From Shigella phage SGF2, in sequence record MN148435: a DNA stretch of 64,000 nt; one strand, 5' to 3'. The translations under genes were made by a program, and so were the position numbers. The first letter of the stretch is position 1. The number at the start of each line of letters is the position of its first letter. Below are positions 37,121-38,491 of the stretch, one piece after another. The notes under the pieces were generated by a model. That model saw nothing but the letters and a program-made list of their open reading frames with translations. It had not been told where the DNA came from and did not search any database.

Positions 37121-38491
37121 TTAGTTATTTGTTTCCATGTCAAAAGAGATTCCACGACCCGCTTCATCGGCAAACCGAACTGTACGGGCTTGAGGTTCTA
37201 ATACTTCAGGGTTGTTAGCAATAAAGCGATCAGCGAGACTGCGGCTGACAGCCTCAGCGAGTTCCTCATGAGAAGGAGTATCAAGATCGGAGAGACTGCC
37301 TACCACATCTTGGGCCACACCTTCATCAGTCCACACAGCCCTAACAGGTGCGTTGATATCACCAACAGCAAAACCCTGACCAGAGAACTGACGTGCGCTA
37401 ACAGTTAAACCGTTTGGTCGACCACGAGAGGGTCTAGCCATCCATCGCTCCATAGAATCACTTGTAATACCAAGAGCTTCTTCAAAAGATGTTCTACGAG
37501 TAGGGCTTTCTCTTCGTGACTCTTGTGCTCGACGCATTGCAGGGGCTACAAAAACCCCTTCAATTGCATTGTGTCGGTTAGGTTCATCTTCCCGACCAAG
37601 GAGATCCCCTCCTGTATTAGTTGTTAAATTTGTCAACCCTTCAGACCAATACGCACGAATCTGACCAGAGCCATGAACACTTGACATTAACTGAATTTCT
37701 TCGTAAGGGATTCCAAAGAATCGACTCATGTCTCGGTTAACACAATATTGAGCACTTGTTGTATCCTCAACATGAGCAACCTGACCTCGTTCGTTGACCA
37801 GATGACTAACTGGTTGAGGTGTAGGAAGGTATCGAGTTTGTGCCATATATTGATATGCAACAGATGGAGCGGAGAATCTTAATACCTGTGAATTAGGCCA
37901 CTTCTTGTGAACGTATCTGATTTCACGACTAGAAACAACCACAGGGCAAGGAGCGGTCATAGCTAAATATCCATGAGGAGTCATGAATAAGCTGTCAAGA
38001 GTTATCGCACCACGGCACATCATAGGAAAATTATCCAATACCTCTTCAATAGAAGTAGGATAATTAAACATGAATTGAATGCGGGTTCCATTCCACTGAA
38101 ACTCAATAATATCAGTGAATGTTAATTGAGAACCCCCAGCATAGGATTCGTTTGTAGCTTCAGCAAGAAGGGATGCATACTCGATATCTTGTGACTCTAG
38201 CCATTCCTTCACATTACTTTCAATCTCTCTTCCAAGAGCTTGCCAACGATCAGTTGGGGTGAATGTGTTTTGAGTTATTGGTGTTTGTCCTCTGACAATA
38301 AAGATATCAATGTCATGTGGAGCTGTGTTATTAAGCACAGCATCTCGAACAGCCCCACCAGTAATGATGGGACAGATACCGTCTGGAACCAAGTTGTTGT
38401 TAATCAACTGTTCAATGAAGTGACGACCAACAGTGATATCAGGTTGTTGAGCAACCTTATCTTCAATTCGGTTAATCGGGATAACAATCAT
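37121..38491 (-). CDS. Pol-beta superfamily nucleotidyltransferase (CCA-adding/poly(A) polymerase-type head motif)
   Basis: ITGGAVRDAVL...HDIDIFIV; start MIVIPINR at 38491, 1 nt after exonuclease stop. Confidence 0.5.
   Translation of the reverse strand: MIVIPINRIEDKVAQQPDITVGRHFIEQLINNNLVPDGICPIITGGAVRDAVLNNTAPHDIDIFIVRGQTPITQNTFTPTDRWQALGREIESNVKEWLESQDIEYASLLAEATNESYAGGSQLTFTDIIEFQWNGTRIQFMFNYPTSIEEVLDNFPMMCRGAITLDSLFMTPHGYLAMTAPCPVVVSSREIRYVHKKWPNSQVLRFSAPSVAYQYMAQTRYLPTPQPVSHLVNERGQVAHVEDTTSAQYCVNRDMSRFFGIPYEEIQLMSSVHGSGQIRAYWSEGLTNLTTNTGGDLLGREDEPNRHNAIEGVFVAPAMRRAQESRRESPTRRTSFEEALGITSDSMERWMARPSRGRPNGLTVSARQFSGQGFAVGDINAPVRAVWTDEGVAQDVVGSLSDLDTPSHEELAEAVSRSLADRFIANNPEVLEPQARTVRFADEAGRGISFDMETNN

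Follow-up and report, generated by a model that had tools for sequence, protein, structure and literature searches.

Class II members of the Pol-beta superfamily of nucleotidyltransferases (NTases) include the CCA-, CC- and A-adding enzymes and the poly(A) polymerases, and their body and tail domains serve to hold the tRNA. Among them, the Escherichia coli poly(A) polymerase I (PAP I, or PcnB; PDB 3AQL) displays a full neck and body, the RRD and EDPxR motifs and an isoelectric point (pI) of 9.7. Stand-alone class II heads of about 200 aa have also been described, in Streptococcus pneumoniae (NP_344798; PDB 2LA3) and in Autographiviridae (LKD16 ORF16, phiAS7_00003, Providencia phage PS3). Here, we analysed an NTase gene found in a 64,000-nucleotide stretch of Shigella phage SGF2 (MN148435), hereafter referred to as the window. 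Its product is very probably a highly divergent, cut-down class II member of the Pol-beta nucleotidyltransferases, and is unlikely to function as a canonical CCA-adding enzyme.

The coding sequence (CDS) occupies positions 37121-38491 on the minus strand (ATG 38491-38489, TAA 37123-37121) and specifies 456 aa. The initial annotation, made from the nucleotide sequence, had recognized this gene on the basis of a 457-aa open reading frame (ORF), a length that counts the stop codon. A longer version starting at the GTG at 38548 is unlikely, as the 38491 ATG marks the place where every one of the 27 aligned family sequences starts, with the pattern M-[ILYFNQ]-x-[IVFYC]. Both the gene and its motif are genuine, and they were previously annotated in E. 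coli phages, GenBank having likewise chosen a CCA-adding label. The protein corresponds to PHROG 12715, a phiEco32-like nucleotidyltransferase (E 8.3e-263, residues 1-456 against profile positions 1-457), and shares 78-96% identity with the orthologues of closer isolates. The window belongs to the genus Kuravirus, the NTase being 100% identical to the protein of Shigella phage SGF2. At the nucleotide level, kuravirus genomes such as vB_EcoP_DE5, SU10, NJ01 and Bas91 are 95-96% identical over the 4.4-kb region surrounding the NTase. One peptide of the SU10 protein was detected by mass spectrometry, its gene being part of the early block CDS69-125 (PMC4281155). The family itself is uncharacterized, our literature search having turned up no work on its function.

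The catalytic head and its place among class II enzymes

The GGAVRD...DIDIF signature put forward by the initial annotation can be read directly from the translated sequence. GGAVRD (residues 45-50; 38342-38359, minus strand) represents the first part of motif A, with G45, G46, R49 and D50 invariant, and DIDIF (residues 60-64; 38300-38314, minus strand) the second, with the invariant catalytic carboxylates D60 and D62. Residues 45-62, GGAVRDAVLNNTAPHDID, thus reproduce the class II pattern GGxVRD-x(8-10)-DxD. This resemblance is beyond chance: the motif does not vary even among family members with 21-33% identity, the family profile matches CCA-adding enzymes of the PDB with an E value of 0.004, and the best matches of the predicted fold are class II NTases. 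In the 27-sequence family alignment, in which the sequences from outside the kuraviruses share 21-33% identity with the query, invariance extends to F64, Y117, I128, Q139, P156, Y193 and K197, and position 127 is D or E in every member.

The last of these positions provides a candidate for the third catalytic carboxylate, D127 (38111-38113, minus strand). Its assignment comes from an alignment made by hand rather than produced by a tool, and anchored on S[IL]EE, on a conserved Phe and on the succession of the predicted strands and helices. In this alignment, TDIIEF would pair with YEVTTF of the Bst CCA-adding enzyme, making D127 the likely counterpart of Bst E79. E104, suggested by hhalign for the same role, was rejected, being conserved in about 60% of the members, compared with an acidic residue in every member at position 127. 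With GG45-46, the D60/D62 pair and this hand-assigned acidic residue, the protein conforms to the general pattern of the Pol-beta superfamily.

Because the GG..RD helix, the DxD pair and the third acidic residue are strictly conserved, the enzyme is probably active. A catalytically dead scaffold, in which a degenerate NTase fold would be kept as a structural or regulatory subunit, could account for the extreme divergence from active class II enzymes and for a long disordered tail whose conserved short motifs suggest protein-protein interactions; yet the invariance of these catalytic residues down to 21% identity argues for retained chemistry and makes such a scaffold very improbable.

The overall fold was predicted with AlphaFold2 (AF2) using the 27-sequence family alignment, an earlier alignment of 17 kuravirus sequences having given a predicted local distance difference test (pLDDT) value of 30. 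Confidence is high (pLDDT mostly >90) over the family-conserved N-terminal catalytic region (residues 1-290; 37622-38491, minus strand), which consists of a head with the alpha/beta NTase fold and a brief neck-like segment made of helices; these short helices span about 100 residues, after which the chain is predicted to become disordered. Foldseek searches of the PDB placed this model among class II enzymes, the top 37 matches being all CCA-, CC- or A-adding enzymes (E 3e-5 to 1e-3, template modelling (TM) values of 0.21-0.28). Profile comparisons point in the same direction. The only significant PDB matches of the family profile were CCA-adding enzymes (E 0.004), with an alignment limited to 26 residues of motif A, and hhalign against a class II head-and-neck profile built from five sequences (E. 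coli Cca, PcnB and three PDB sequences) returned 88% probability (E 3e-6), with confident pairing around motif A only. Motif, fold and profile matches therefore agree with the claim that this is a Pol-beta superfamily NTase with a class II head of the CCA-adding or poly(A) polymerase type.

Beyond motif A, the similarity fades rapidly. Against Cca or PcnB as single sequences, hhalign probabilities fell below 10% (4% for PcnB alone), and a phmmer search of the PDB with the NTase sequence found no class II enzyme, the lone match being a spurious ribosomal protein. The Pfam PolyA_pol model (PF01743) matched at 20.2 bits, below its gathering score of 23, with positions 3-83 of its 126 aligned; matches at E < 0.01 occurred in six of the 27 family members. 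Bona fide class II enzymes, by comparison, recognize one another at E values of 1e-8 to 1e-20 over the head and neck. Since the motif and fold fit while sequence similarity is minimal, the NTase is best seen as an extreme outlier of the class II lineage.

The folds closest to the model are all RNA 3'-end polymerases. This weighs against the idea that the protein uses its Pol-beta active site to transfer nucleotides to another protein or to a small molecule, for example by AMPylating a factor of the host or the phage, or as an anti-defence activity. PADLOC and NCBIfam model searches gave no match and the genomic context offers no specific candidate acceptor, so that we consider it quite unlikely.

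Several elements that define canonical class II enzymes are missing or appear to be replaced. The counterpart of motif B (RRD before F-T-x-N-A) would be the stretch SIEEVLDNFPMMCRGA, which the hand alignment tentatively pairs with SLEEDLKRRDFTMNAIA. No conserved Arg-Arg-Asp occurs there in the 27-sequence alignment, family-conserved residues being limited to F/M155 and P156. The candidate counterpart of motif D (EDxxRxxR), which templates the base and opens the neck in class II enzymes, is REIRYVHKKWP (residues 189-199; 37895-37927, minus strand), with a predicted helix at 188-197 and the family motif R[DE]xxYxxKKxP, in which Y193 and K197 are invariant. If R[DE]xxYxxKK does pair with EDxxRxxR, as the hand alignment suggests, the templating Arg would be replaced by an invariant Tyr; hhalign confidence is zero in this region. 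Finally, the tRNA-binding body and tail domains are absent from the model, in which confident prediction stops near residue 290.

These features set the protein apart from each of its described relatives. Compared with PAP I, it has no body, no RRD and apparently R[DE]xxY in place of EDxxR, its pI is 5.0 instead of 9.7, and the similarity is confined to motif A. It differs from the enzymes of Bst (1MIV), T. maritima (3H37), A. aeolicus (3WFO/4WBZ) and human (1OU5) by the absence of body and tail domains, of motif B and apparently of motif D, and more generally from CCA-, CC- and A-adding enzymes by a PF01743 match below threshold and the lack of phmmer-level similarity. The stand-alone heads, for their part, are devoid of the neck-like helices, disordered linker and C-terminal tail of the kuravirus NTase, and their similarity to its family is marginal (hhalign probability about 32%). 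What is mildly new here is a truncated variant without body, tail or motif B, found in one phage lineage and within an early replication block.

The missing parts bear directly on the proposal, made in the initial annotation, that the enzyme matures or repairs tRNA 3' ends. A CCA-adding enzyme acting on phage or host tRNAs, for instance after attack by host tRNA-targeting defences, would be in line with a motif A of the CCA-adding type, with the dominance of CCA-, CC- and A-adding enzymes among Foldseek matches, with a family profile whose significant PDB matches are solely CCA-adding enzymes, with the identical label chosen by GenBank annotators, and with the presence of a tRNA gene in the phage. 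On the other hand, the predicted NTase is deprived of the parts used for tRNA recognition, motif B is not conserved and motif D appears to be replaced. The single phage tRNA, a tRNA-Arg(TCT) located 16 kb from the NTase (54224-54299, minus strand), is specified by a gene that already includes the 3' CCA (...GGGTGC-A-CCA), a context that argues against the need for such an activity. Because the body, tail and RRD motif are missing and the tRNA-Arg gene supplies the CCA end itself, there is poor support for a canonical function in CCA addition or repair, a view to which the apparent replacement of EDxxR by R[DE]xxY and the PolyA_pol score below threshold also contribute, and we regard such a function as improbable.

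Downstream of the catalytic region, the protein is considerably more variable. A linker (residues 291-395; 37307-37621, minus strand) is predicted to be disordered (pLDDT <50) and is rich in indels among kuraviruses. It contains an Arg-rich stretch at residues 316-362 with a pI of 11.6, while the region 291-400 has a net charge of -1. The C-terminal tail (residues 418-456; 37124-37240, minus strand), with the sequence ..LADRF..NPEVLEPQxRTVRFADEAGRGISFD.., is conserved within kuraviruses and shows invariant columns between 420 and 450; AF2 predicts a helix and a hairpin there at low confidence (pLDDT ~50-64).

Distribution and composition of the family

When 1.84 billion representative proteins were scanned exhaustively with HMMER, only 33 clusters reached E ≤ 0.001. 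All of these have the N-terminal 200-290 residues in common, the shortest members being 274-300 aa long, and none of the 33 corresponds to a canonical CCA-adding enzyme. Word-indexed homologue searches recovered almost solely kuravirus orthologues, also when the family alignment was used as query, and it was the exhaustive scan that yielded the distant relatives. Within kuraviruses, residues 1-300 are near-invariant, the segment 300-417 accumulates substitutions and indels, and the last 40 residues or so are again conserved. A precomputed match to PF26128 is recorded for many NTase orthologues (including those that we numbered P0002 and P0003); this family was not reported by our local Pfam scans and is mentioned in no searchable paper.

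The distribution of the gene among phages was examined by tblastn, using two distant family members against 50,697 phage records. Each query matched 96 records, all Escherichia or Shigella phages except for three unassigned, and the primase-helicase was detected at ≥80% identity in the same number of records (96). As these counts are equal, the NTase can be considered as a core gene of the subfamily Gordonclarkvirinae.

The NTase is also the most lysine-depleted protein of the window, with four Lys for 35 Arg, while most genes have K/(K+R) ratios of 0.4-0.7. This bias is family-wide (4-9 Lys and 18-35 Arg per member), and two of the four lysines are conserved, K197 being invariant and K196 kept in most members. 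Arg is also favoured in E. coli Cca and PcnB, though less strongly (0.29). Lysine depletion as a sign of horizontal acquisition was rejected, since the G+C content of the gene matches that of the genome and the two E. coli enzymes are Arg-biased as well. Other Lys-poor proteins in the window include the ATP-grasp protein, the amidoligase and an adjacent ORF of an early-gene cluster described below (42172-43374, 45928-47031 and 48454-49425, minus strand).

Gene order in the replication block

The NTase is shown to be a core early gene of Gordonclarkvirinae with a fixed position between an exonuclease subunit and a dCTP deaminase. It belongs to a conserved four-gene block on the minus strand that opens with a T7 gp4-like primase-helicase (39041-40831). 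The second gene (38493-39047) encodes a 184-aa DEDD 3'-5' exonuclease that, in agreement with the initial annotation, is a polymerase exonuclease, with matches to PF01612 (E 4.8e-9, above threshold) and to the PHROG 'DNA polymerase exonuclease subunit' (E 1e-37). The NTase follows, and the dCTP deaminase (36578-37111; 177 aa; PF22769, E 4e-34) starts 9 nt past its stop codon. The order primase-helicase, exonuclease subunit, NTase and dCTP deaminase was found in all seven related loci, which share 28-84% protein identity and include uncultured 82-88-kb phages. The polymerase itself is split into the 184-aa exonuclease subunit and a 614-aa family-A catalytic subunit (27855-29699, minus strand; PF00476, E 6e-23; SU10 gp051), whose gene lies about 9 kb farther downstream; the SU10 scheme places the former in the early block and the latter in the middle block.

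The initial annotation regarded the NTase as translationally coupled to the exonuclease gene. The spacing on which this idea was founded is exact, since the junction reads TAA-A-ATG (38489-38495, minus strand), with the exonuclease TAA at 38495-38493, a single base at 38492 and the NTase ATG starting at 38491; the same or a similar junction occurs in relatives, and a GGA lies 10-12 nt ahead of the ATG. The distinctive link between the two genes did not stand up as well. The distance from exonuclease stop to NTase ATG varies among the seven relatives (0, 1, 1, 1, 2, 16 and 18 nt), and in the SU10 annotation over half of the neighbouring genes on the same strand overlap or are separated by ≤1 nt. 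Since such gaps are ordinary in this type of genome, the spacing says little about a functional link.

The Bruynoghevirus SaPL has a primase-helicase with 45% identity and the same split exonuclease and polymerase, with a shorter gap between the subunits, and no NTase follows its exonuclease gene. The absence of the NTase from SaPL indicates that it is a lineage-specific insertion lying outside the ancestral polymerase unit. Head-only NTases of about 200 aa occupy similar positions in the replication modules of Autographiviridae (LKD16 ORF16, phiAS7_00003).

Other features of the region were recorded along with the replication block. Just upstream of it, an early-gene cluster (41051-50632, minus strand), which is conserved in the distant relative L008, comprises genes for a gamma-glutamyl cyclotransferase-like protein, a RimK/ATP-grasp protein, a class II glutamine amidotransferase, an amidoligase and a phiEco32-type COOH-NH2 ligase, together with three ORFs (205, 323 and 398 aa) that have no Pfam match. 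The cluster represents a putative system for the formation of peptides or amides. On the other side, three tandem small ORFs of 65-69 aa (35962-36577, minus strand) are weak paralogues (~25% identity) with a TRxxAR..K core and a KV[YHI]Y C-terminus. Genes for a Dps/ferritin-like protein (35004-35615, minus strand) and a thioredoxin (34478-34753, minus strand) are located between those of the exonuclease and polymerase subunits. The processivity partner of the T7 polymerase is the host thioredoxin, and by analogy the phage thioredoxin may play this part for the phage enzyme. Both the Dps/ferritin-like protein and the thioredoxin were abundant in SU10 proteomics.

Possible substrates and significance

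The fold nearest to the NTase is that of PAP I, from which we infer by homology a default chemistry in which a nucleotide is added to a 3'-OH without template. The enzyme would thus take a nucleotide from a (deoxy)nucleoside triphosphate and pass it to the 3'-OH of a nucleic acid, in the manner of PAP I, and its disordered tail or the flexible Arg-rich region 316-362 could serve as a handle for the substrate or for a partner. While the class II identity and the reduced architecture are very probable, template-independent transfer to a nucleic-acid 3' end stands at about an even chance, its case being built from homology.

The conserved gene order raises the question of whether the enzyme may instead be directed at DNA, acting on DNA 3' ends, primers or dNTPs, possibly with covalent DNA modification as a result. 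Phages of the Gordonclarkvirinae are markedly resistant to restriction-modification systems with no known modification pathway or inhibitor, and the BASEL completion paper speculated that the NTase and the neighbouring dCTP deaminase may reflect covalent DNA modification (PMC11990801). Such a role would be consistent with this unexplained resistance, with the position of the gene between the exonuclease subunit and the dCTP deaminase, which is invariant in all lineages, with the analogous small NTases found inside Autographiviridae replication modules, and with the missing RRD motif, which reads the ribose 2'-OH. The window also retains 29 EcoRV, 9 EcoKI and 6 EcoRI sites, so that site avoidance alone does not explain the resistance.

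Several points nevertheless weigh against activity on DNA. The combination of ThyX, a dNMP kinase and the dCTP deaminase amounts to an ordinary route of dTTP supply, no modified base has been reported in the literature for Gordonclarkvirinae phages, and the SU10 annotation includes a separate anti-restriction protein. Replication as such appears to manage without the NTase, as illustrated by SaPL, which has the same replication arrangement and no NTase. Moreover, to our knowledge, no class II NTase has been described as acting on DNA or dNTPs. Taken with the points in its favour, a DNA-directed function is unlikely. As for DNA containing deoxyuridine (dU), as in PBS1, it was set aside as unlikely, the phage encoding ThyX and a dNMP kinase.

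Some short sites are strongly avoided in the window as a whole (1-64000), with three CCWGG for about 74 expected, no GGATCC, CTGCAG or GAGCTC, and 629 six-base palindromes where about 1069 were expected from base composition.

A more specific version of the DNA-side explanation involves the short motifs of the disordered tails. Kuravirus NTase tails carry AVWTDE, which is lost in some isolates, and Trp-containing motifs are found in other members, such as PVWVDESD in the related locus L004, DSPWF in L008, and WQW, WTF or WDW at the end of short members. A strict C-terminal aromatic motif was rejected for the family, as there is a tendency only. In each lineage examined, including L004-L008, the acidic C-terminal tail of the primase-helicase ends in ...SPW, ...LPF or ...SPF, to which the Trp motif of the NTase bears a resemblance. 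T7 gp4 and gp2.5 have C-terminal Phe tails that dock on the polymerase. By analogy with these docking tails, which the primase-helicase tail resembles, the NTase might be tethered to the replisome. An NTase docked in this way by Trp and acidic motifs and acting on DNA, primers or dNTPs could form the basis of covalent modification or end-processing, and would explain the resistance to restriction-modification; we consider this scenario a long shot. If true, it would represent the first class II NTase of the CCA-adding or poly(A) polymerase type with a DNA-side function.

Returning to the reading that we favour, a cut-down class II enzyme that may add nucleotides to 3' ends without template, the main outcome of this analysis is the correction of an attractive, weakly founded 'CCA-adding' annotation in a phage group used in therapy-oriented work. 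Two groups of podophages, the Gordonclarkvirinae and, more distantly, some Autographiviridae, keep a minimal head enzyme of the CCA-adding or poly(A) polymerase type in their replication modules. Identification of its substrate would either provide the phage toolkit with a small RNA-tailing enzyme or reveal a DNA-side role for a fold associated with RNA 3' ends, and the importance of the family would rise substantially if the enzyme acts on DNA or underlies resistance to restriction-modification.

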